DNA of 64,000 nucleotides from an uncultured Acidobacteriota bacterium (GCA_963809485.1 CAWEJX010000015.1:170732-234731); one strand, 5' to 3'. Numbered from the stretch's first letter, positions 30,594-61,378 are shown. Made by a program: numbers and translations. The notes: a model not told the origin generated them from the letters alone.

Positions 30594-30853
30594 CTGTCGC
30601 GAAACGTAACAATGACCGATTGGCCCAAAGCCCCGAAGGGGTGAAAGAGAATAGCCGGGGGCGCAAGCCCCCGGATAGGACATTGCATTAAAGTGAGCCC
30701 CGTAAGGGGCGAAAGGTTTTATATGGCAATGCTTTCTGTTGCCCCTTCAGGGCTATTTTCTTGCCGATTCTTGCCGGGGGTTCGCTTAGCTCATCCCTGG
30801 CTATTCTCTGATCGCCCCTTGCGGGGCTTGGTTAAAAAACCTGTTTCGCGACA
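30594..30853. mobile_element. Non-coding MITE/REPIN-like element with terminal inverted repeats
   Basis: CTGTCGCGAAAC ... GTTTCGCGACAG ends enclose GCCCC-loop-GGGGC hairpins in a mirrored layout. Confidence 0.6.
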
Positions 30854-40869: not shown

Positions 40870-41128
40870 CCACTACCGGCTAAAGCCGGTGGCCACTAGT
40901 TGCGACTTAAAGTCGCCTGAAAATTAAATGCCCTCGCATTCAGCACCGAAGGTGCGTTCCATACCAGCCTGGGGCAACGCCCAAGCATTGGAGTGAAGCA
41001 CGAAGGATCAAGGGCTGAAGGCCCGCTCCATAATTCATGGGCCGGGCTTTCAACCCTTCGTAGCCTGTTGTGATCAAATCCTGGGGCTTGAGACCCAGGC
41101 TTGATATCGATCGGGCCTTTCGCCCTTC
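40870..41128. repeat. IS200/IS605-end-like hairpins plus a REPIN-like palindromic element
   Basis: ACCGGCTAAAGCCGGT and GCGACTTAAAGTCGC hairpins; AGGGCTGAAGGCCCG ... CGGGCCTTTCGCCCT mirrored arms. Confidence 0.5.
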
Positions 41129-44322: not shown

Positions 44323-47300
44323 TCATTGAACCTGTTTTTTCCTCAGCCTGCGCGTAAGGTCGTCCAGTAATGTGTACATGACCGGGACGGCGATCAGGGT
44401 CAGCAGCGTTGACGTGATCAGGCCGCCGATGACGACGCGGGCCATGGGCGCCCTTATCTCCGATCCGGCCCCTATCTCAAAGGCCAGCGGCAGCATGCCG
44501 AAAATCATCGCCATCGTCGTCATCACAATCGGCCGGAACCTCGTTCGGCCCGCCTCGATCAACGCCGCGTTTCTCTCCTTTCCCTCGTGCCGCAGCCTCT
44601 TGGTATAATCGATCAGAAGAATCGCATTCTTCACCACCAGGCCCATCAGAAGTATCAGCCCGATCATCGACATCATGTTCAGCGTGTCGCGCGTCAGCAG
44701 CATCATGCCCGCCACCCCGATCAGCGAAAGAGGCAGCGAAAGCATGATCGCCAGCGGATGCGTGAAGCTGCCGAACTGCGAAGCCAGGATCAGGTAAATG
44801 AACACCACCGCCAGGATCAGCGCGTCGTAGATGTAGTCGAAACTCTCCGACATGTCCTCCGATTCGCCCGTGAATCGTATGCTGTATCCTGCGGGCACCG
44901 TCATGGCTTCCACCTTCTCCTTGAGCTCGTCCTCGACGTCGCCCATCGGCCGGCCGGCCGTGTTGGCAAAAATGCGCACTTCACGCGCCAAATCAAGGTG
45001 CCGTATCTGAGCCGAACTCGAGCCTCTCTGAAACCGCGCCACCTGGCCCATCGGGAATCAACATGTCCTTCCCCCCCGCATCCTTTTTCGTGCTCAGCAG
45101 GTCGATGTCCTCCAGCGTATCCACCGACTGGCGCTGACGGCTCGCCAGGCGCACCCGCACGTCATAGGCGTCGCCGTCCTCATCCTCGAACTGCGTCGCC
45201 ACCTCCCCGTTCAGCAGCGCCCGCATCGCCATGGCCAGCGACTCGAGATTGATGCCCAGGTCCGACGCCAGCTTGCGGTCGATGTGCACCAGTATCTCAG
45301 GCTTGTCCCTGTCCAGGCTGCGGTCGACATCCACGATGCCCGGGACTCCCCGCACCATCTCCATCACCTGGATCGAAATGCGGTCGATCTCCGCCATGTC
45401 CGGCCCCTGCACACTGATCTGAAGCGGCCGGGCATCCCCCATGTCCGGCACGTCCTCGATGCTGACGTTGGCGCGCCCATACGACGCCAGCTCGCTCCGC
45501 AGCCGGCTGCGCATCTCGTCGTCCGACATCTGCCGCTCCGCCTTGGGCTTGAGCTTTACATAAATGGCGCCCTCATTGAGCGCCGCCGTGGAGCCCGCGC
45601 CAATGGTGGTGAAGGTGTACTTCACATCCGGCCTGGCCGAAATCAGGCGCACGATGTCGTTGGATATAGTCTCGGTCTGCTCGATCGAGCTCCCCGGATT
45701 GGTCTTGAAGCTGACCTGGAATTCGCCCCGGTCGTAGGATGGGAAGAAATCCTGCCCCAGACTGTTGAACAGCCAAAGGCTTGCCCCGAAAAGCGCCAGG
45801 GAGAAGGCCATTACCAAAGCACGGTGGCGCAGCGCATACGCGATCGCCTTTTCATACAGGTCGCGCAGATCCAGGAAACGGTTATCAAAAGTTTCCAGCA
45901 CGCGAGCCAATCCGCGCCTTCGCATGTGGGTTTCGACGGCCGGATCATACCAGCGCGACGAAAGCATCGGGTCCAGCGTGAATGAAACAAACAGCGAAAC
46001 CAGGACCGCAAAGGCTACCGTGATGCCGAATTCAAAAAAGAAGCGCCCGACGATTCCCTTCATGAAGGCGATGGGCACAAATACCGCCATGATCGAAAAA
46101 GTCGTCGCCATCACCGCCAGCCCGATCTCCGACGTGCCGAAGCGCGCCGCCTCCATGTGGCTTTTGCCGAACTGCATGTGCCGGACGATGTTCTCCCGCA
46201 CCACAATCGCGTCGTCGATCAGCAGGCCGACCGAAAGCGACAGCCCCATGAGCGTCAGGATGTTCAGCGAAAAGCCCATGATCTTCATGATGATGAAGGC
46301 CGAAATGATCGATACCGGCAGCGTCAGTCCCGTGATCACCGTGCTGCGCCAGCTGTTGAGAAACAGGAAAACGATGAATACCGTGAAGAGCGCGCCCAGC
46401 ACCAGCGTTACCTGAACATCCTCGACCGAGTCGCGGATGAACTCCGAGGAATCCCGGACGACATCCAGGCGCGCCTGGCCCGGCAGTTCCCGGTTCAGGA
46501 CCGGCAGCTGGGCCTTGACGGCTTCTGCCACGTCGACCGTGTTGCTGCCCGACTGCTTGCGCACCTCCAGCGCCAGGCTTCTCTGCCCGTTGATCAGCGC
46601 CAGCGTGCGCTGTTCTTCGTATCCGTCCGCCACCCTCGCGACCTCGCTCAGGTAGACGGGAACGCCGCGAATTGTTTTTACGATGAGATTCTGAAACAGG
46701 TTCGGGTCGTCAACCTTCCCTTCCACGCGCACCAGTTCCTCGACGGCGCCGCTCTGGACCTTGCCGGCCGGGACCTCGATGTTTTCGCGCCGGAGAGCCA
46801 TGACCACATCGGTAACCGTAAGCCCGTAGGCCTTCATGCGCTCAGGATTCAAAAAGATCTGAATTTCGCGCCGCTGCCCGCCGACGATCTTGAGCGAGCC
46901 GACACCTTCGATGTTCTCGAGGCGCTTTTTGATGACCTTCTCAGACAGCGTAGTGAGGTCCTTCGGAGAGAGCTTCGGGGAAGATACCGAAAGCGAAACG
47001 ATGGGCATGTCGGCCGGATCCATGCGCTCGATGACGGGCTCCTCGACGCCGGTGGGGAAATCCCGCCGAAGGGCGCTGACTTTGCTCCGCACGTCCTGCG
47101 CGGCCGTGTGCACGTCGACTTCCGAGCTCGAACTCGGCGACCACCATCGACATGCCCTCGGTGCTGACCGAGGTAATGGTTTTGACGCCCTCGATGGGAT
47201 TGATCGCCTCCTCGATGCGCTTGGTGACTTCCGTCTCCACCGTCTCCGGAGCGACGCCGGGATAGACGGTCTGGACCGTCACCACCGGGAAATCGATGTC

Positions 47301-47414
47301 CGGGAAGAGATCGATGGAAAGCTCCTTGTAGGAGAAGATCCCAAGCACCACCAGCGCGACCATCATCATGGCCGCGAACACCGGCTGCTTGACCGACAGA
47401 TCCGATAAAATCAT
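44323..47414 (-). CDS. RND efflux permease (AcrB/SwrC-like), frameshifts near 47115 and 45052
   Basis: IDLFPDIDFPVVTV, GLLIDDAIVVREN, KNAILLID and RFRPIVMT motifs across three frames. Confidence 0.88.
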
Positions 47415-50850: not shown

Positions 50851-51849
50851 TTATTCATCTTTCAGCGAGCGGTCCATGAGTTGGCGGATGGCTTCCTGCG
50901 GCGAGACGCGGCCGTCCAGAATGCGCTGGACCTGATGAGTGATGGGTATTTCAACGCCTTTCTGCCGGGCGAGCTCCACCGTGGCGCCCGTAGTCCTTAC
51001 TCCCTCTGCTACGGTCTTCGTCGATCCAAGGATGTCCTCGAGCTTGCGTCCCTTACCCAATTCGAATCCCACACTGCGGTTGCGGCTCAGGTGCCCGGTG
51101 CAGGTGAGAACAAGGTCTCCCATCCCGGCCAATCCGGCGAGCGTCTCGCCCCGCGCGCCGCAGGCGCAGGCCAGCCGCGTCATCTCGGCCAGACCGCGGG
51201 TGATCAGCGCGGCCTTGGGATTATGGCCCAAGCCCAATCCCTCGATGACGCCGGCGGCGATCGCGATGACGTTTTTGACCGCGCCACCCATCTCCACGCC
51301 AATTACATCCGCAGAGGTATACAGGCGCAATGCGGACGACGAAAATTCCTGCTGCACGCTGCGGGCGGCATCAGCATCCGCGGAAGCCACCACTACGGCA
51401 GCCGGATCTCCGCGCGCCACTTCCTGCGCAAAGCTCGGCCCCGAAAGCACGGCGAGGCGCGGGGCAAACCGCGGCGCCACGACGCTCCCTATCACTTCGC
51501 TCATGCGCATCAGCCGCTCGGCGTCGAGCCCTTTGGTAGCGCTCACCAGAATCATTTCCGGCTTCAAAAAAGGCAGCATCTGCTCGTACAACTGCCTGCA
51601 GGCATGCGACGGCATCACGGACAGGACAAAACGGGCCTGATCGAGCACTTGTTCCAAATCGTTTGTGGGAATTATGCCTTCGGGCAGACTGACCCCGGGA
51701 AGAAACAGCCTGTTTTCGCGGTGCTTCTCGATGCTTTCGACAACTTCCGCCTCGTAGGCCCACAGCCGGACGGCGTGGCCCAGGCGGGAAAGCGTCAGGG
51801 CAAGGGCCGTCCCCCAGCTCCCTGCCCCGATGATGGCAATATTGGACAT
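50851..51849 (-). CDS. gpsA: NAD(P)H-dependent glycerol-3-phosphate dehydrogenase
   Basis: GAGSWGTALA, SGPSFA, GGAVKNVIAIAAG, GLAGMGDLVLTCTG.LSRNR motifs. Confidence 0.96.
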   Translation of the reverse strand: MSNIAIIGAGSWGTALALTLSRLGHAVRLWAYEAEVVESIEKHRENRLFLPGVSLPEGIIPTNDLEQVLDQARFVLSVMPSHACRQLYEQMLPFLKPEMILVSATKGLDAERLMRMSEVIGSVVAPRFAPRLAVLSGPSFAQEVARGDPAAVVVASADADAARSVQQEFSSSALRLYTSADVIGVEMGGAVKNVIAIAAGVIEGLGLGHNPKAALITRGLAEMTRLACACGARGETLAGLAGMGDLVLTCTGHLSRNRSVGFELGKGRKLEDILGSTKTVAEGVRTTGATVELARQKGVEIPITHQVQRILDGRVSPQEAIRQLMDRSLKDE

Positions 51850-51894: not shown

Positions 51895-53605
51895 CTACTT
51901 CTGTTCCGGTGGATAGACGCTGATCTCCACCCGCCGGTTCAACGCCTGGTTGTTGGCATTGGCCGGATCGGCCGGGACATCCCATCCCTTCCCCTCGATG
52001 CTGAACTTGTTGGGATCAAACTTGAACTTCTCCACCAGAGCCCGCTTGATCGCCTCCGCGCGAGCCAGGCTCAACTCCTTCACCGCCTGGACCGGGACAC
52101 GCCCCCTCATGCTCGAATCGGTGTGCCCCTCGATCATGATCACCGCCCTGGCAAACTGCCCCGACAGCTGCGCCACCCGCTCCAGAGTCGCACTGACGTT
52201 GGGATCGTACAGCTTCCCGGAAATGGTGCTGCCCGTCTCATCCCGCGCGGGCTCGTAGGGATTGGCCGAGTTGGGATAAAAGTTGATGCGGATGGTCTGC
52301 GTCAATATCGGCGATTCGGCCGTCACTTTGCGGAAACTGGACGGTGTGAACGCCGCGATGCTCTCATCCTTCTGGTGCGCGAACGTCCCCTTCTGCTGCA
52401 GCTTCTGGATGATCGAGAAGTCCATCACCTGGTCGAACGGGATCGGCGCGCTGATGCGGCCCAGTTCCCTGTAAACGTAGCTTGCGTTGCCCCAGGTGCG
52501 CTCGAAATTGGTCGGGTTGGACGAGTTCATGAAGAACTGCACGTTTTCCGCAAAATTGGTCGGATGCGCGTCGTTGCGCATGGAAAGGATCTCGTCGGGC
52601 TTCATGCCGAAGGCGTCCGCCATCCACTTGGCCGGCTGCTCCGGGCTCTGCTTGACCATGTCCATTCCTTCGAAGATCCCCGAGATCAGACCTTCGACAA
52701 TCTCCGGATGGTCGCGCGCAAAGTCGGCGCGTACGGCATAAACGTCGGCGATCAGCTTGTTCGCGTCGCTCGTGCTCGAGAGCACACGGGTGCCGGCGAC
52801 ACGCTCCGGGATGTTATAGATGTCGGGCGCCCAGGAAACGCAGGCATCCACCTTTTTGTCCACGACGAAAGCCGCCGCCGCCTCAAACGCCGTCGCGGTA
52901 TATTTAACCTTTACATCCGCCGGGCGAAGTCCGGCCGACATCAAGAAGCGACGTCAGGTAGTATTCGCTGGGCGAGTTCTGGGCCAGCGTCACGGTTTTG
53001 CCGCGCAGGTCCGCGACAGACTTGATCGAACTGCGGACGACGATGCCGTCTCCGCCGCTGGACCAGTCGATCTGCTGGGGAATGCGCGGGGCCGTGCGCG
53101 AGTCCTTGATCAGTTCCGGCGCAAGCAGAACCATCATGTCCGCGGTGCCCCACAGCGTGTGGACCTCGCCGGCCGCAAAGGCGTCGCGCGCGGCCACCGG
53201 ATCGTCCATCAGGACCATCTCGACTTGGAAGCCGTATTTGCGGGAAAAAATGCTGTCCGCATTCGGCTTGGTGCCGTGATTCGCCGCGATCACCGGAAGC
53301 CATCCTGCCCAGACGTTGTAGCTGAAACGCAGGATCTTCTCCTTGGCATCCCAGCGGTACTGGCTGACCCCCTTGACCGCGGGCAGCTTGTCGGCAGGAA
53401 CGTATTTGTATTCCTTGACCGTCGTGACGTCCGAGGTGTCGGCGGCTTCGGTCTCGATCGATTGATCGCTGCCGCCTCCCGGCCCCAGCTTTATGCCGGT
53501 ACCTCTTTTCATCACGATGTAAAGTCCGAACCCGATCAAAGCGACAATCAACAGCACGGAGAGAATTTTTCCCAACGGCGTTAGCCGTGCAGGCTGCTCA
53601 GCCAT
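51895..53605 (-). CDS. Membrane-anchored NMT1/SsuA-like solute-binding protein fused to an OmpA-like peptidoglycan-binding domain (frameshift near 52944)
   Basis: N-terminal TM; WAGWLP, DWSSGGDGIV, DLRGKTV, DACVSWAP; C-terminal IEGHTDS..LSLARA..NRRVEI. Confidence 0.8.
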
Positions 53606-53771
53606 ATGCACCCCCTTTGAGAAGTACGAATTACGAATGACGAATTACGAATTAAATCAACATGCCAATTCGGCAATTCTCGTGCCGCAAGGACTGTTTT
53701 TCCTGTTGAATGCAGAATCGCCTTTTTACTATTCCGTATGCTTCAATTCGTCATTCGTAATTCGTAATTCG

Positions 53772-54509
53772 TCATTCCTTCGGTCCTATTTCCTTCGAGG
53801 CGGCGGGAGGTTCGGTTGAGGCCGGGGCCTGGATGCCCTGGCTCGCCAAAAAATCCGCCAATGCCGCCTGTTCCAGCGCCTTGCGCTCGCCTTCCTTCTC
53901 ATTGATGTAATCCATATCCACCATGTCCTTGGCGACTCGCGCCTTCCCCGCCGACACTTCATACCGTTTGTTCAGGATTTCCTCGACCGTCTTCATGGTG
54001 TCGCCCAGGTCGCCCACTTTGAAGGCAGCGTTGCCCAGCGCCGCCGCAGCCTCAGCCTGAGCTTCTTTGATCTGAACCTGGGAGAGCTGGCTCTCCAGCT
54101 TGCGCACCTTATCCTCGAATTCCTTTTGCACAAGCTTCGCCTGGCGCAGGTTGCCCTGATAGGCCTCCTCCGTTTCCGACAATTCCTGCGTGTCTGTCGT
54201 CAGGTCCGCCTTCAGTTCCTGCAGTTCACGCGCCAGGCTGCCGGCCAGTTCGAGATTTCCGGCCTGGTGATTGGCCAGAATGCGCCGCTCCAGTTCCTTC
54301 GCGCGAACCGTCTTTGCCTTGACCTGGCTTTTGAGGCGTTCGGCAATGCCGGCCATGCGCGCGAGAGCCATGTTGTACTGAGCCATTTTGTCCCGGAAAT
54401 CCTGGCGGGCGGCTTCCATAAGCGCCTCGGGATTAGCCTCCTCGATTCCGCTGATGAAAAGCCCCAGAAATCCCCGGAAAAGCCTCCCAATTCGAGCAAA
54501 TACCGCCAT
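53772..54509 (-). CDS. PspA/IM30 (Vipp1, ESCRT-III superfamily) protein
   Basis: Amphipathic N-terminus MAVFARIGRLFRGFLG, NPEALMEAA, AGNLELA, long coiled coils. Confidence 0.8.
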   Translation of the reverse strand: MAVFARIGRLFRGFLGLFISGIEEANPEALMEAARQDFRDKMAQYNMALARMAGIAERLKSQVKAKTVRAKELERRILANHQAGNLELAGSLARELQELKADLTTDTQELSETEEAYQGNLRQAKLVQKEFEDKVRKLESQLSQVQIKEAQAEAAAALGNAAFKVGDLGDTMKTVEEILNKRYEVSAGKARVAKDMVDMDYINEKEGERKALEQAALADFLASQGIQAPASTEPPAASKEIGPKE

Positions 54510-54533
54510 TGTGCCCTCCCTTTTGGTTGTCCG

Positions 54534-54799
54534 TTCAACCGTCGCTACGCGACGGGATCCTTATGCATGCCTCAATCCGGGCCTTAAAAGGCCCGGCTAA
54601 ATTCATTCCGCCGCTCCGCGGCGGCCTTCCCTTTGGCAATTTTCCAGATCACTCTCCGATACAGATCTTGATCATTTGATCCCTGTAACACAAAGGTTGG
54701 TGAAAACCGGCCGCATAGCGGCCGGATGATTTTAGCCCGGCCTTTTAAGGCCGGGGTACGCGATGCACATCAAATCCCGTCGCGTCAGCGACGGTTGAA
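54534..54799. repeat. Inverted pair of ~90-bp three-hairpin REP-like units
   Basis: Units at 54534-54624 (+) and 54709-54799 (-). Confidence 0.85.
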
Positions 54800-55252
54800 T
54801 TATCCCCATAAATACCGCTCATCGTAAGTAATCCCGTGCCTTTTAAGCAACTCCAGATACTCCTCCTGAAAACTCTTTTTCCGATGATGTTCTTTTTGAC
54901 CCTGAATATAGCGTATCACGTCAGGCAATCGCGATTTGCTTACGCTGAATGCGCCGTATCCGTCCTGCCACTCAAATTTTCGCAGGCCTGTGAATTCTTC
55001 ATGAATCCACTTGGAGGAATCTCCTTTGAGGTATTGCGCGATCTTGCTGGGTGCCAGGCTCGCCGGAGCCAACACCAAGGCGTGAATATGATCGGGGGCT
55101 CCGCCGATTTGAAGAGCTGACATTTTGTGCATTCGGGCAATGCCGCCCAGATATTCCCACAATCGCTGTTCCACATCCGCATTGATGAACCGCATACGGT
55201 TCTTGGTGCTGAAGATGAAATGGTAATGAAGCGACGTATAGGTATTAGCCAT
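54800..55252 (-). mobile_element. tnpA: IS200/IS605-family Y1 (HUH) transposase, probably REP-associated (RAYT-like)
   Basis: YHFIFSTKNR, DHIH (HUH), WQDGYGAFSVS, YIQGQ; no tnpB; flanked by repeated hairpin units. Confidence 0.88.
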
Positions 55253-55271
55253 AGAAAGCTTTTAGGTTCAA

Positions 55272-56263
55272 TTCAACCGTCGCTCACGCGACGGGATTCT
55301 ATTCGATTCCCTCTTCCCGGCCTTGAAAGGCCGGGCTAAAATCATCGGGCCGCTACGCGGCCTTTTTAACCTGACTATCGCCCTGTTCTCCCTCTGTGTG
55401 ATACCGAACCCAATTCAACCGTCGCTCACGCGACGGGATCCTCTTCCCTCATTCTGATCCCGGCCTTGAAAGGCCGGGCTAAAATCATCCGGCCGCTACG
55501 CGGCCTTTTTAACCTGGTTATCGCCCAATCCTGCCCTCTATACAGGTCTCGCCCGTTTTCAACCGTCGCTCACGCGACGGGATTCTATTCGATTCCCTCT
55601 CCCCGGCCTTGAAAGGCCGGGCTAAAATCATCCGGCCGCTACGCGGCCTTTTTAACCTGACTATCGCCCTGTTCTCCCTCTGTGTGATACCGAACCCAAT
55701 TCAGCCGTCGCTCACGCGACGGAATCCTCTTCCCTCATTCTGATCCCGGCCTTGAAAGGCCGGGCTAAAATCATCCGGCCGCTACGCGGCCTTTTTAACC
55801 TGACTATCGCCCTGTTCTCCCTCTGTGTGATACCGAACCCAATTCAACCGTCGCTCACGCGACGAAATCCTCTTCCCTTATTCTGATCCCGGCCTTAAAA
55901 GGCCGGGCTAAAATCATCCGGCCGCTACGCGGCCTTTTTTATCCTGATTATCGCGCCATCCCGCCGCCCAGCGATGGCTTCGCCTCTGATAATGCTCCGC
56001 CGAGCTTCGATGTCTCCTTCCCAGCACTGCTTCCCTGAAATCTCACAGGATGCTCGCCGAAGCCATAAGCCACGATGTAGCCAAGCGGCGTCCCTGCCTT
56101 TGACAGCTTCGGGCCAATCCCCGATATCGCTTTTCCTACCCTGATGCCCTGAATTCAGCGCATTTTAGAGGCGGCCGCGTAGCGGCCCTATGATTTTAGC
56201 CCGGCCTTTTAAGGCCGGGGTACGCGATGCACATCAAATCCCGTCGCGTCAGCGACGGCTGAA
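55272..56263. repeat. Five tandem ~143-bp REP-like units plus one inverted unit
   Basis: Starts at 55272, 55414, 55558, 55700 and 55843 (+), and 56173-56263 (-). Confidence 0.92.
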
Positions 56264-56322
56264 TCAAATGCAATTCCATTTAAATAGATCCGCCGCCCAA
56301 GAAGAAATCGGGACTTTGCCCC

Positions 56323-56961
56323 TTAATCATCGGTGGTGATGATTGGGCGGTCGACGAGGCAGGCGACGACGGATGCAATGTCCTTCTCCCACGCTTTTTT
56401 CTGCTGCCTCCACTCGCTCCACTTCTGCTCGTCCGCTTTTAATTTTTCCTTCAACCCGTCGCACTCCTGCTGAAGCTTCCCTATCTCGGCCTCAATTTCC
56501 ACAATCCTCTTCTGGCAGATGGCCTGCCGGTCCTTTATCCTTTTGGCCGCAACCGTTTCATAGGCATCCAGGGCCCTGTCGCGCGCCACCGCATCCTTCA
56601 CCAATTCCTCGGCCTTGATTCCTTCCGCGCCCAGTTTCTCCAGCACCGACTTCTGCACTTCGTCCTTCGGCTTATTCCTGAGATTCCCGCTCTGGACGAA
56701 CTGCTTTAATTTGTCCACCGTCCAGCTGCCCGGCCCGGCTTCAATCCCCGCTGTTTCAAAAATCTTATCCAATGGGATGGCAAGCTCGGCCGGCGCTTCC
56801 GCCAGCGCCTTCACTTCCACCGACTTTATTTCGACTGTCAGCTCGCGCAGGGTCACCGTGCGCGTGCGTATCCTCACGGCGGGTGCGCGCCCGGACGTCG
56901 AAACCGTTTCCAGGATCCCGATTTTATCCCCGATCCCCTTCAGGCGTTTCAGCAGGTTCAT
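56323..56961 (-). CDS. Hypothetical helical protein with C-terminal coiled coil
   Basis: Starts 2 bp after the AAA ATPase stop; LVKDAVARDRALDAYE followed by a coiled coil. Confidence 0.75.
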   Translation of the reverse strand: MNLLKRLKGIGDKIGILETVSTSGRAPAVRIRTRTVTLRELTVEIKSVEVKALAEAPAELAIPLDKIFETAGIEAGPGSWTVDKLKQFVQSGNLRNKPKDEVQKSVLEKLGAEGIKAEELVKDAVARDRALDAYETVAAKRIKDRQAICQKRIVEIEAEIGKLQQECDGLKEKLKADEQKWSEWRQQKKAWEKDIASVVACLVDRPIITTDD

Positions 56962-56963
56962 GG

Positions 56964-58701
56964 CTACACAAATCTCCGCAACTCGTCGATTCTCTTTTCC
57001 AGCTCATCGGGCGGCATATCACGGAAACGCTCCGGCAGAAAGCGCGCATCGGTGCACTCCCTGACGGCAACCAGGTCCATGTACTCCAGCTTGAGGCGGT
57101 GCGCGCTCGGCCGCACTTCCTTCAACACTTCCGCCAGAATATCGCGCAGCGGCCGCTTCTCGGAAGCCAGGACATGAGTCGCTAACGCGCGCACCAGGAT
57201 GCCCTCGATTTCGTTGCCGCCCAGCACCAGATCCTTGGAGATCTCGGGGATGTCCGATTCCGCCAGCGCGACTTTCAGTTTGCGCGCAATCGCAAAGAAC
57301 AGGCTGTGCATTTCTTCCGGGGTTTCCGGCGGGAAACAGCGGGATGTGCACGTCCAGCCGCCCCTGCCGCTTCAAGTCCACTTCCAGCAGGTCCGGGCGC
57401 GATGTGGCAAAAACCCAGATGATGCGTCCGCGGTTGCGCGTGTCGGACATCTCCTTGGCCAGCATCGCGTAGACGCGCCCCGACAGCCCGCCGTCGGAGT
57501 CTCCGCCTTCCCTCTTGCCGGCCGCCTGGTCGGCTTCGTCCACGAACACCACGACCTGGCCGAGCGCCCGCAGAATCGAAAAGATCTTCTCCAGGTTGGA
57601 TTCGGTGGCGCCCACCCATTTGTCGCGGAAATTCTTGAACACGACGCAGGGGATCCCCAGTTCTCCGGCCCAGCACTGCACCAGGAAAGTCTTGCCCGTC
57701 CCGATGCGGCCCGGCAATCAGGTAGCCCATGGGCAGCGCATACAGCACTCCCCGCCTCATCGAGTTCGGCGTCTTCCCGCAGCCAGGCCTTGACGGCTTC
57801 GGACCCCGACAGGTTATCCAGCGTGAACGGGGATTCGAGGAATTCCAGCAGGCCCTGGCATTCCTTCTCGATTCTCTCCTTCTTCATGCGCGTCAGCCAG
57901 GCCGAGGTGATCTTCTGCTCATTCTTGAGCGCTCGCGTCAAGAACGGTGTGCGCCCCGACGCGGCTCAGCCCGGTCAGGCGCCGGCCCAGCACTTCCACG
58001 GGCACTTCGCATTTTGCGGCGAGATCCGGCAAAGAACTGCGCGGCCAGCATCTTGACGTATTCCGACATCTCCGCTTCGCCCGGCAGCGGGATATTCAGC
58101 GCCGCGGCGTGCGGATTTTCCACGACCAGGCTGTTCAGGTCGTGCAGCCCTTCGGCGATCAGCACCGTGACGATGTCGGACCGCAGGATGGCCGGATCGT
58201 TGGCCCAGCCCAGCACCTTGACCACGTTGGAGCTGAATGCGCCGCCCAGTTGCAGAGGATCGCCGCGCGGGACCACGAATTCCGCGAACTCGATAATGAC
58301 CGCGATTTTCCGTACGCCGGCTTCCGCGCCTCGGAGGGACTGAAGGTTGAGCGTACGCAGCAGATACCGGTCGATCAGCTCCATGGCCGCGCCGGGCTCG
58401 CGCAGCTGGCACGATGCTGGAAGCCTGGTCCCCGAGCGCCAGCCTCAGCCACTCCCCCCAATCCTCCGCCGCCGCGCGTCGCCCGGATTCCCTTGCCGCG
58501 GTCGTAGTGCAGGATCACGTCGTATTTCTCGAACATCACCTCGTCGAGAAAGGCGCTCAGGGAGAGCATGCCGCGGCTCCCCGGACGATCCGGGAGCAGC
58601 GACGGTATCGAACACGTTGCCGTGCAGCAGAAACTGCGAAACAGATCCCGATTTGAAGAGATCCCGCATCTCCTCAGCCCAGCCGGCAGTCCCAAACCCA
58701 T
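56964..58701 (-). CDS. AAA+ ATPase with degenerate N-terminal AAA-like domain (multiple indels)
   Basis: Fragments join: SQFLLHGNVFD..., KKERIEKECQGLLEF, GRIGTGKT (Walker A), VVFVDEAD (Walker B), ATSRPDLLEVDLKRQGRLD (SRH). Confidence 0.8.
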
Positions 58702-58763
58702 AGTATTCTCCCAGTCCTGATAATTACGAATTACGAATGACGAATGACGAATTCATGGCTTCG

Positions 58764-59624
58764 TCATTCGTCATTCGTCATTCGTAATTTGCAATCTGGC
58801 GGCGGTTCGGACATCAGATCTTCGACCGCGCCGTAGATCTTCTGCTGATCGCTGATCCACTGCGTCGTGCCGCCCAGCGTGGCCGTGACTTGATCGATTC
58901 GCTTCGAAAGCGTTTCCGGATCCGCCGATACAGCACCGCCTGCTCGCGCACAAGCTCCACCTGCTCCTGGATGCGGGTAAGCTCGGCATCCAGGAAGGCC
59001 AGCTTTTCTTTCGCCTCGCGCCGCCTTTCCAGCCGCTGCTGCAGTATTTCGATTTGTCCCGTGAGGCTTTTGCGCAGGTCCTCCGACAGCGGCTCCTTGA
59101 GCCGGGCCTGCAGATTGGCAATCCGCTCTTCCAGGCCGGCGGATTCGCTCGGAGCGCCGGCGGACCCGCGAAGAATCCGGTTGATCGCCTGACGCGTAGG
59201 CAGCAAGGCGCAGATACACCCACAGCAGCCGGCCCAAGCCCTCGCCCTGAGCCTGCAGGCCCTGCGCCTGGGGTCTGAATCTGCATGCTGCTGCTCCAGC
59301 AGCGTCCGGCAGCGCTCCTCCAGAGCACGGTATCGCTGCTGATCTTCGCGCTCAGCTGCCGGATGAGCGGCATCGACCTTCGCCTGCCATTGCTCCCGCG
59401 TCTGCAGCTGCTGCGAAGCGTCCACCAATCTCTGGAAGCGCTTGGTTGTGCCGAGGATCCACAGGTAGCCCAGTTCGAGCCCCAGGCCGACGATCCAGAA
59501 ACCGGGATTCAGCAACGCCCAGCAGGGCGAACGCACCCAGGCCTATCCAATTGGGAGGCACAAACATCCCGATCGGTTTCGCGCTAAATGCCTTGCGAAT
59601 ATAATCCCAAGCGCTGGGATTCAC
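58764..59624 (-). CDS. Hypothetical membrane-anchored coiled-coil protein (multiple indels)
   Basis: N-terminal TM hairpin (VPPNWIGLGAFALLG..NPGFWIVGLGLELGYL), then coiled coils (AELTRIQEQVELVREQA); GAGGG RBS before GTG. Confidence 0.7.
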
Positions 59625-59727
59625 TTCCCCCTCCCTCAACCCATCAACATTAAATACTGAGAAAAAAATATTTGTTTATATTTTTTCAGCGTACGTCAGC
59701 GTTTATCGGCGTTCGTCAGCGTTAAAA

Positions 59728-60531
59728 TTAATGGACAGGCACATTGTCCGATACGCGCCGAAAGGCTTCCGTCACCACATAGACTGCATTCTTGAAATCG
59801 GGCCGCTCCTGCGCAACCAGCGGCGGGATCCCAACCGAAGGCGGGATCGTATCACTGATATCATAGGCGATTTGGCCGGGCGCGTGAGTAAAAATCCACA
59901 CCCTTTCCCCCAGATACACCGCTTCGGTCACGTTGTGGGTGACGCAGAGGATCGTCGGCTGAATGCGATGCCAGAGCTGCACGATCAGCTCCTGCATCTC
60001 CAGCCGGGTCGGCTCGTCGAGCGCCGAAAACGGCTCATCCATCAGCAGGATCTGCGGCTCCATGACCAGCGATCGCGCAATCGCCACACGCTGCTGCTGC
60101 CCGCCCGAAAGCTGATGGGGATATTTGTGCCTGTGATCGATCAGCTCGACCTGCTCGAGAGCTTTTTCCGCCTTGCTGCGCCGCGTTGCGCGGTCCATCC
60201 CCTGCTTGTTGATCTCCAGCCCGAACATCACGTTCTGCAACACCGTCAGGTGCGGGAACGAGCTGTATTGCTGGAAAATCATGCCGCGGTCGCGCCCCGG
60301 CCCCTGCACCGGCTGCCCCCTGACGAGCACTTCGCCTTCCGTGGGATTGAGAAAACCGGCAATCAGATTCAGCAGCGTGCTCTTGCCGCATCCCGAGGGG
60401 CCTATGATCGTGATGAATTCCCCGCGCTCCGGATTATCGTGGATGCGGAAGGAAATGTCGTGCAGGGCCGTGAAGGCGCCAAAACGCACGCTGACCTTGC
60501 GGAACTCCACGATCGGGTCCGTTTTCGATAT
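59728..60531 (-). CDS. ABC transporter ATP-binding protein (NitT/TauB/SsuB family)
   Basis: [32 protein letters not shown]; exact start uncertain. Confidence 0.9.
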
Positions 60532-60541
60532 GTCTGTGGCG

Positions 60542-61378
60542 TCAAGCTCGGCTCCGGCGATAGGGGAAAAGGACTGCGCCCAGGCGCGTCCAGAGCAGAT
60601 CTGCAATCCAGGCGATGATGGTGATGATGACGATGACGAGGTAGACTCTGCCCGACATGGCGCGCCGCCGGGCGGTGTCGATCAAATCTCCCAGTCCGCC
60701 CGACTTCACGACCACTTCCGCCAGGACCAGGTAGGACCAGCCGACTCCGAAGGCCAGCCGCATCGAGTGCCAGATGTCCGGAAGCGCCACCGGCACAAGA
60801 ACCCGCCGTATGATATGCCAGCGCGTCGCGCCCAGGGTGTAGGCCGTGCGCAGGTACACATCCGGCACCGCATCGATCGCTCGAACGACCATCGGCAGAA
60901 GGAAGATGCCGAACGCCATCGCCAGGAACACCACCTTCTGCTTTTCGTCCAGTCCGAACCAGGACATGGTCAGGGGAACCAGCGTGGCGATCGGAATGTA
61001 GCCGCTGGCCGTGGTGATCAGCGCCATGGTGGCGCGCGCGCTGCCGAACGAACCCATGAGAATGCCGATCGGCAGCACAATGGCCAGCCCGAGGAGAAAT
61101 CCGAGCGCGACGCGCCTCAGGCTCAGTCCGATATGGTCGATCAGGCTGCGATCGTCCTGATCGCTCGAGCCCACGAGGTCCCCGAGACTCTGGACAACCT
61201 CCGCAGGGCTCGGCAGGATGGTCGGGCCGAGCATGCGCTCCTCCGGAATGCCCCGCGTAAGCATCCACCAGCCGAGTATCAGTACGGCAAGCGGAATAAG
61301 CCCCAGAAGCGCCGACACCCCGGATGGCACCCGACCGCGAATTTCTGAAAACCATTTAGGGATCATGGGATAAAACAT
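60542..61378 (-). CDS. ABC transporter permease (NitT/TauC/SsuC family)
   Basis: ILPSPAEV, SLRRVALGF, TAYTLGAT EAA-like loop, WSYLVLAE. Confidence 0.9.
   Translation of the reverse strand: MFYPMIPKWFSEIRGRVPSGVSALLGLIPLAVLILGWWMLTRGIPEERMLGPTILPSPAEVVQSLGDLVGSSDQDDRSLIDHIGLSLRRVALGFLLGLAIVLPIGILMGSFGSARATMALITTASGYIPIATLVPLTMSWFGLDEKQKVVFLAMAFGIFLLPMVVRAIDAVPDVYLRTAYTLGATRWHIIRRVLVPVALPDIWHSMRLAFGVGWSYLVLAEVVVKSGGLGDLIDTARRRAMSGRVYLVIVIITIIAWIADLLWTRLGAVLFPYRRSRA

Follow-up and report, generated by a model that had tools for sequence, protein, structure and literature searches.

The closest described relatives of the locus reported here are the operons surveyed by Ravi et al. 2024 (mSystems, PMC11237479, section 18), in which PspA is accompanied by a protein with two copies of the AAA+ domain, of which the N-terminal copy is inactive; such operons may be extended by genes for an ABC ATPase, for a permease and for PBPB-OmpA. 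From this arrangement those authors suggested an ATP-dependent membrane remodelling tied to solute transport, with OmpA binding peptidoglycan. No experimental work on the module was found in our literature searches, and a search joining Ycf46 and Vipp1 returned no paper. We analysed a 64,000-nucleotide stretch of DNA (the window) from an uncultured Acidobacteriota bacterium (GCA_963809485.1 CAWEJX010000015.1:170732-234731), in which seven neighbouring genes encode an ABC permease, an ABC ATPase, a coiled-coil protein with two transmembrane (TM) segments (TMcc), a probably two-tier AAA+ ATPase, a helical protein (hel), PspA and a fusion of a solute-binding protein (SBP) with an OmpA domain (SBP-OmpA). 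Both the gene set and the inference drawn from it are those of Ravi et al. 2024, so the arrangement, which the initial annotation had put forward as a candidate for a poorly described system, was already in print. On balance we incline to read the locus as one copy, in its extended form, of an envelope module conserved in several phyla and working in the way proposed below.

The module also resembles the ESCRT-III/Vps4 and CdvB-CdvC systems in that a gene for a polymer of the ESCRT-III superfamily lies beside one for a classical AAA ATPase with a threading pore loop. The logic, polymerisation followed by ATP-driven disassembly, is likely shared. In contrast to Vps4 and CdvC, the module ATPase lacks an MIT domain, appears to have two tiers and is nearer to Cdc48/VAT, and the polymer is of the PspA/Vipp1 type and not of the Snf7 type. 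According to passages in Makarova et al. 2024 (PMC10936438) and in a 2025 review, bacteria lack ATPase–ESCRT-III systems, and the reversal of PspA assembly is an open question. The archaeal 'Meth_adaptin' ESCRT loci, as portrayed in passages of Makarova et al. 2024 (PMC10936438), are similar in combining ESCRT-III and an AAA ATPase with an ABC solute-binding protein, whereas their binding protein is of another family (ProX) and lacks an OmpA domain, and their ATPase, in archaeal hosts, is a true Vps4.

The source of the window, which forms the final 64 kb of contig C15, is a 6.0-Mb genome (G000) that consists of 21 contigs and is 95.7% complete. Below, L with a number denotes loci fetched from relatives and G with a number denotes genomes. 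Genes in the window were called from open reading frames (ORFs) and Pfam gathering cut-offs, while membrane anchors and hairpins were scored on the orthologues of locus L011. All seven module genes were found on the minus strand, co-directional and interrupted only by repeats and one transposase, just as the initial annotation had placed them:

60542-61378, minus strand: ABC permease of the NitT/TauT type (BPD_transp_1, E 2.3e-16)
59728-60606, minus strand: ABC ATPase (ABC_tran, E 7.8e-36; the alignment to orthologues begins at about 60546)
about 58764-59630, minus strand: TMcc gene, split over frames, no Pfam family
about 56964-58701, minus strand: AAA+ ATPase gene, product probably two-tier, in at least five overlapping pieces in three frames
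56323-56961, minus strand: hel gene, 212 amino acids, no Pfam family over the cut-off
53772-54509, minus strand: PspA/Vipp1-family protein (PF04012, 41.4 bits against a cut-off of 33.9, E 1.6e-10)
51895-53611, minus strand: SBP-OmpA fusion gene in two frames (N-part 52904-53611, C-part 51895-52944)

The same seven genes in the same order were found in five genomes of the same genus (L011-L015), where each of them is one open frame (274, 282, 281, 573-600, about 215, 245-248 and 569-588 amino acids, from the permease to SBP-OmpA). Locus L016 carries the same set in a different order. The hel gene was present in 9 of 24 other genomes of the genus and in none of 16 genomes from other families of the class, and a hel profile found matches in 23 of 401 sampled genomes of the phylum (20 of 227 genera). 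Sixteen hel-matched places were fetched and scored with our own hidden Markov models. All seven genes were present in six of these 16 loci across the phylum, in two gene orders: that of the window in L043, and hel-PspA-SBP-permease-ATPase-TMcc-AAA in L052, L054, L055, L056 and L058. In L044, hel-PspA-TMcc-AAA occurs and the transporter is missing; in L048, L050 and L051 there are SBP, permease, ATPase, TMcc and hel, and our models detected neither PspA nor AAA; L057 stops at a contig end, and five of the 16 loci have hel alone.

Other genes were seen at some of these hel-selected loci. The variant clusters of L050 and L051 (G135 and G087) contain extra small ORFs of 128-201 amino acids with no Pfam family. 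At L044:4199-4624 (G112) a 141-residue ORF of the '23S rRNA-intervening sequence protein' family (E 2e-19) lies between TMcc and AAA. A stand-alone hel homologue at L049:10480-11583 (G311) is directly upstream of a gene of the actin-like Volactin family (E 5.1e-79), with no PspA, AAA or transporter.

Additionally, a genome collection was scanned with the AAA alignment. The scan gave at least 599 stretches, of which at least 590 were confirmed and 80 kept; these came from Acidobacteriota, Gemmatimonadota, Planctomycetota, Binatia, Gamma-, Delta- and Betaproteobacteria, Eisenbacteria, Armatimonadota, Eremiobacterota/Xenobia and Bacteroidota, and the AAA family thus spans at least nine phyla. Genes were counted wherever the AAA gene was flanked on each side by 6 kb or more, as it was in 43 loci. 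Near AAA and on the same strand, TMcc was found in 40 of these, PspA in 40 and SBP-OmpA in 39; the SBP-OmpA match covered both the binding and the OmpA parts in 37 of the 39, the exceptions being L117 (first 52 model positions) and L138 (positions 7-340). The remaining genes were much rarer, hel occurring in 11 loci, permease plus ATPase in 12 and all seven genes in 10. The hel gene and the ABC pair went together in 10 loci, with hel alone of the two in one and the pair alone in two. The bare set TMcc-AAA-PspA-SBP/OmpA was seen in 26 of the 43, with no TauC-type permease on either strand of the 9-kb flanks, and in three the AAA gene stood by itself. TMcc was directly upstream of AAA in most of the 80 loci, and after it in L094, L112 and L122.

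It is clear from the counts over the 43 loci that TMcc, the AAA ATPase, PspA and SBP-OmpA form the core, and that the ABC permease, the ABC ATPase and hel are an accessory set. Since the order is identical in five same-genus genomes and 39 of 43 loci keep the core, the grouping is far beyond chance. The genes are thus kept together across phyla in at least two orders, which was one of the things the initial annotation had wanted checked, and their functional linkage is strongly supported by this co-occurrence across phyla and rearrangements. Neither hel nor the permease-poor four-gene core is mentioned in the main text of Ravi et al. 2024, whose Text S2.2 and Table S3 may cover both. In the source annotations the genes appear as 'AAA+ superfamily predicted ATPase', 'phage shock protein A', 'NitT/TauT ... 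substrate-binding protein' and 'hypothetical', and a protein atlas places the nearest clusters of the family in Acidobacteriota.

The spread of the family is patchy: the AAA N-terminal domain was found in 64 of the 401 sampled phylum genomes (51 of 227 genera). Such a distribution, together with the many phyla, the rearranged gene orders and a resemblance of the AAA core to the PADLOC IetA models (E 2.9e-11), would suit an anti-phage or other conflict system composed of a PspA-like effector and an AAA switch. We regard this as very improbable. The IetA match does not go beyond the generic AAA core, none of the four other proteins that were tested matches a PADLOC model, and the flank is a housekeeping one (gpsA) that recurs in two relatives.

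The product of 53772-54509 is the sole PspA_IM30 match in the genome, and its L016 orthologue reaches 68.6 bits with PF04012. A profile built from 14 PspA sequences matched Vipp1 sll0617 over positions 1-232 (E 1.2e-20), PspA 7abk (E 2.3e-11) and E. coli PspA 4whe (E 1.3e-3). The assignment to the PspA/IM30 (Vipp1) family of the ESCRT-III superfamily is therefore sound by similarity; the PF04012 score above the cut-off and the colinear profile match to solved chains bear out the PspA call, on which the earlier interpretation of the locus had depended. A complex prediction of PspA with hel scored 0.00 in both runs and had no controls; it is evidence for nothing and gives no verdict.

PF00004 was found on residues 350-476 of a 600-residue AAA orthologue (E 6.7e-22). 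The motifs GxxGTGKT, KNFRxxWVGATE and (V/I)DE and two arginines, which we take to be Walker A, pore loop 1, Walker B and the arginine fingers, are invariant in 11 AAA sequences, and all are intact in the window, in the frame piece 57019-57717. The partial NCBIfam scores of the orthologue were 62.8 bits for CDC48, 55.9 for FtsH, 47.4 for PAN and 27.3 for CdvC (cut-off 650). Its 60 best solved chains were VAT, Cdc48, p97, AFG2, NSF, NVL and Rix7, Vps4 being absent among those 60, and the MIT family was not listed by Pfam at E<=1 for the 600-residue protein. With the MIT domain missing and the active tier closest in score to Cdc48/VAT/FtsH, not to CdvC, the Vps4-type identity initially given to the ATPase has to be abandoned; by sequence the protein is a classical AAA ATPase, probably two-tier, with a Cdc48/VAT-like active tier, and not a Vps4 orthologue.

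In the N-terminal half of the AAA protein, 'HGNVxD' occupies the expected place of the P-loop. No Pfam family was found in the first 265 residues of the orthologue, and a search of the PDB with the single sequence of this half gave no matches at E<=10. When a profile of the N half was used, all 60 hits shown were AAA ATPases, all of them weak (E>=0.011), and hhalign aligned the N half with the C half colinearly at a probability of 1.3%. The N-terminal half looks like a degenerate AAA tier, and these data fit the published description of an inactive N-terminal copy, short of proof.

The similarity of the active tier to Cdc48/VAT, FtsH and PAN, its aromatic pore loop and the position of TMcc directly upstream of AAA in most of the 80 loci could also point to a Cdc48/FtsH-like extractor or unfoldase of damaged membrane proteins, with TMcc as its adaptor, PspA merely sealing and SBP-OmpA positioning the complex under the wall. 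This seems unlikely to us, although less so than a conflict system. PspA is kept beside AAA in 40 of the 43 loci, which argues for a direct functional tie between the two, and no protease or degradation partner was seen in the few neighbouring ORFs scanned.

The SBP-OmpA orthologues are intact proteins of 569-588 amino acids with NMT1, Phosphonate-bd and OmpA domains and an N-terminal TM segment at residues 6-36. In the window, the N-part (52904-53611) has a weak Phosphonate-bd match and the OmpA domain scores 46.1 bits with PF00691 against a cut-off of 27.2 (E 6.5e-12). The nearest solved chains are SsuA and TauA for the binding part and Omp38, PomB and MotB for the OmpA part. The protein is thus predicted to consist of an SsuA/TauA-like binding domain anchored in the inner membrane and an OmpA/MotB-like peptidoglycan-binding domain. 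It shares the N-terminal TM anchor and the C-terminal OmpA-like domain with tethers of the MotB/PomB/Pal type, but has a whole SsuA/TauA-like domain between the two.

The permease (84% identical to its L011 orthologue), the ABC ATPase and the class-II binding protein all belong to the NitT/TauT family, and the frames of the first two are intact. The best NCBIfam models for the permease orthologue were SaoP and TauC, below their equivalog cut-offs, and the ABC ATPase is TauB-like with 206 bits against a cut-off of 357; the transporter proteins stayed below the cut-offs of all the equivalog models TauB, TauC, SsuA and urea-type. Membership of SBP, permease and ATPase in one family is what would be expected of an ordinary sulfonate- or taurine-type importer that lies by chance beside an unrelated psp cluster. 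This is extremely improbable, being contradicted by SBP-OmpA beside PspA and AAA in 39 of 43 loci, 26 of them without such a permease within 9 kb. To our knowledge, ordinary SsuA and TauA have neither an OmpA fusion nor a TM anchor. Because SBP-OmpA is a core member that lacks a cognate permease in 26 of the 43 loci, the evidence points to a role as sensor or anchor and not to plain transport. A wall-tethered ABC module that senses or moves a ligand had been proposed earlier for this locus; its SBP-OmpA component holds as part of the core, but the ABC permease and ATPase are only accessory.

TMcc is encoded in relatives by intact genes for 281 amino acids, with a hydrophobic hairpin at residues 20-49. 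In an AlphaFold2 model (predicted local distance difference test score, pLDDT, 74.5) the rest is all-helical, and the protein is predicted to have two TM segments and a long cytoplasmic coiled coil. Comparison with the PspA profile by hhalign gave a probability of 11.9% over 18 columns, and neither Snf7 nor PspA was among the 25 Pfam families listed for 22 members. Foldseek found nothing for the model in the PDB at E<=1e-3; VIA wide gave designed helical bundles (best Z 9.6), with no ESCRT-III chain among the 50 matches listed. The proteobacterial PspFABC and mycobacterial ClgR-PspA-PspM-PspN systems pair PspA with a small integral membrane partner, and the nearest named atlas cluster of TMcc is Rv2743c/PspM (feature score 0.87), a lead only; PF25587 (Rv2743c/PspM) was not listed for TMcc in Pfam at E<=1. 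Identity of TMcc with the 'Snf7 homolog with a TM segment' of Ravi et al. 2024 could not be confirmed.

The hel family comprises 812 cluster representatives at E<=1e-3, and no Pfam or NCBIfam family was found for it. Its AlphaFold2 model (pLDDT 89.4) shows an N-terminal helix, a linker, a small helical domain and an 83-residue helix. With this model Foldseek found nothing at E<=1e-3 and VIA wide returned single long helices or zippers throughout (best Z 5.8), and hhalign of hel with PspA gave 0.5%. An acidic C-terminal tail common to TMcc and hel was considered as a recognition tag for the ATPase and dropped; it occurs only in the window's own clade, and the TMcc tail is the translation of one arm of a palindromic repeat.

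Similarly, the surroundings of the module were examined. The absence of pspB, pspC and pspF, which had been remarked on before, holds for the locus itself, although no search aimed at PspF was made. In the whole of this 95.7%-complete genome PspB was not found. The sole PspC-domain match of the genome, at C20:344068-344250 in G000, is far from the single pspA. In this the genome differs from those with PspFABC, whose PspF is described in a passage of the 2025 review as a sigma-54 activator, not an unfoldase. The other features in and beside the module are as follows:

58722-58790: palindromic short repeat that spans the TMcc stop, just before the AAA start
55253-56320: array of repetitive extragenic palindromic (REP) elements, five to six palindromic copies at a spacing of 143 nucleotides plus one inverted copy
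54800-55252, minus strand: IS200-like Y1 transposase (Y1_Tnp, E 2.3e-30)
50851-51849, minus strand: gpsA, frame intact

gpsA adjoins the module in only two of the five same-genus loci, and we therefore consider it a neighbour and not a part of the module. REP hairpins flank the Y1 transposase on both sides (54600-54800 and 55253-56320), and it is a REP-associated tyrosine transposase with its REP array. In relatives the gap between hel and pspA, where the window has the REP and transposase insert, is only about 90-290 nucleotides. On the coding strand of the array many hairpin-plus-T sites were seen; a promoter scan, with two sites against 3.7 expected, was uninformative.

The palindrome at 58722-58790 is nearly perfect, is composed of repeated 'ACGAATG' units and is distinct from the REP family. 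The summed depth of metagenome contigs was 3705 at this place and about 10 in the adjoining bins, and this pile-up marks it as a very common dispersed repeat in these communities. A DNA search suggested that G015 and G012 carry many copies of short repeats from 30630-30830 and 40942-41128 of the window.

That insertions and deletions at the locus would need correcting had been anticipated, and comparison with five orthologues revealed frame breaks in three module genes:

AAA gene, about nine breaks (seven +1, one +4, one -1): 58684, 58579, 58471, 58410, 58040, 57938, 57762, 57709, 57333
TMcc gene, about eight breaks (five +1, two +2, one -1): 59513, 59370, 59349, 59286, 59269, 59204, 58930, 58795
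SBP-OmpA gene, one break (+1): extra base at 52942

Added bases account for 15 of the approximately 18 frame events. When read in the register of the five orthologues, the AAA protein of the window is 77.6-85.5% identical to them, and they are 73.6-85.9% identical to one another; the corresponding values are 69.6-82.9% and 63.4-74.9% for TMcc and 82.4-85.8% and 79.8-89.6% for SBP. The cover by long ORFs is 0.54 and 0.63 in the last 35 kb of the contig, and 0.73-0.88 elsewhere. We also noticed that a 1037-residue gene in the neighbourhood (44332-47414, minus strand) lies in three frames, with breaks near 47117 and 45070, while it is intact in the complete relative G012; these two breaks add to the signs that the consensus is unreliable in this region. 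Short-read metagenome contigs from four runs and at least three studies, which are 5-7% different from the window, do not have the extra base at 57940, 58041, 58407, 58466, 58568, 58928/58930, 59516, 59627 and other places. No RNA run was listed among the sequencing runs that carry the locus, where the shares of all runs were at most 0.13 and belonged to other strains. We are fairly confident that the frame breaks are consensus errors near a contig end and not decay.

Gene content, domain identities and a linkage that persists through phyla and rearrangements have been established; for the physical interactions and the substrate of the ATPase we propose the following. PspA would polymerise on the cytoplasmic face of the inner membrane, and TMcc would anchor or nucleate the polymer. 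A hexamer of the AAA protein would thread subunits of PspA (or of TMcc), so that the polymer would be disassembled and recycled; the ATPase would then be a functional analogue of Vps4, and not its orthologue. The wall-tethered SBP-OmpA would report a periplasmic solute or the geometry between membrane and wall, and in the extended form, with the ABC permease and ATPase, the solute would also be imported. This is the mechanism of Ravi et al. 2024 altered in two respects: the ATPase is taken as a Cdc48-like analogue of Vps4 and not as a Vps4, and SBP-OmpA counts as part of the core, with a role as sensor or anchor being more likely and the transporter optional.

Several points weigh against this reading of the locus. 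The ATPase is not Vps4-like in sequence (27.3 bits for CdvC, 62.8 for CDC48), and TMcc showed no detectable relation to PspA or Snf7 by hhalign, Pfam, Foldseek or VIA. The locus counts are inflated by kinship, many of the loci being from related metagenome-assembled genomes of Acidobacteriota and not independent trials. About 17 breaks crowd into 2.6 kb of the two adjacent genes AAA and TMcc, against one in about 5.7 kb of the other module genes and gpsA, with none in the permease, the ABC ATPase, hel, PspA and gpsA; this uneven spread would also fit a real, gene-specific decay. rpoB, on another contig, is one open frame of 1454 amino acids. The short-read contigs cannot decide between error and mutation because they come from other strains, 5-7% different.

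The module may accordingly be real but decaying in this genome, with AAA, TMcc and perhaps SBP-OmpA as pseudogenes and the REP and transposase insert separating pspA and sbp from the upstream genes. Apart from the distribution of the breaks and the intact rpoB, such decay would be in line with the many hairpin-plus-T sites on the coding strand of the REP array and with the AAA N-domain itself: among the 64 genomes that have it, three frame pieces at a single locus were found only here (G343 has two adjacent pieces, and the two matches of G395 are on different contigs). We nevertheless consider decay rather doubtful. With the extra bases disregarded there is no excess of amino-acid divergence, one frame piece contains every ATPase motif intact, and the locus is near a contig end where the long-ORF cover falls. 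Most events add a single base, whereas a bias towards deletions is typical of bacterial pseudogenes. An intact, extended copy of the module, misread in the consensus, remains the reading that we prefer.

The idea of such a module has already been published as a genomic inference, to which the window adds one further copy, probably with assembly errors. The locus survey adds the division into core and accessory genes and the helical partner family, with its 812 cluster representatives. The compact four-gene core makes the module an obvious place for testing whether ATPases recycle bacterial polymers of the ESCRT-III type, and intact copies are available in complete or near-complete genomes, such as those of the relatives behind L011 and L012. 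In addition, the SBP-OmpA fusion would link the biology of PspA to the cell wall, a link that in the literature we found is described only by Ravi et al. 2024 (PMC11237479). It is possible, although we lean towards doubting it, that the module is a true, working counterpart of ESCRT-III/Vps4 in bacteria of many phyla, in which a Cdc48-like two-tier AAA ATPase would disassemble PspA polymers nucleated by TMcc, and the peptidoglycan-tethered SBP would position and switch the machine as a periplasmic sensor. If so, the ATP-driven recycling of ESCRT-III would be no archaeal invention, and the activity of PspA would be tied to the condition of the cell wall.

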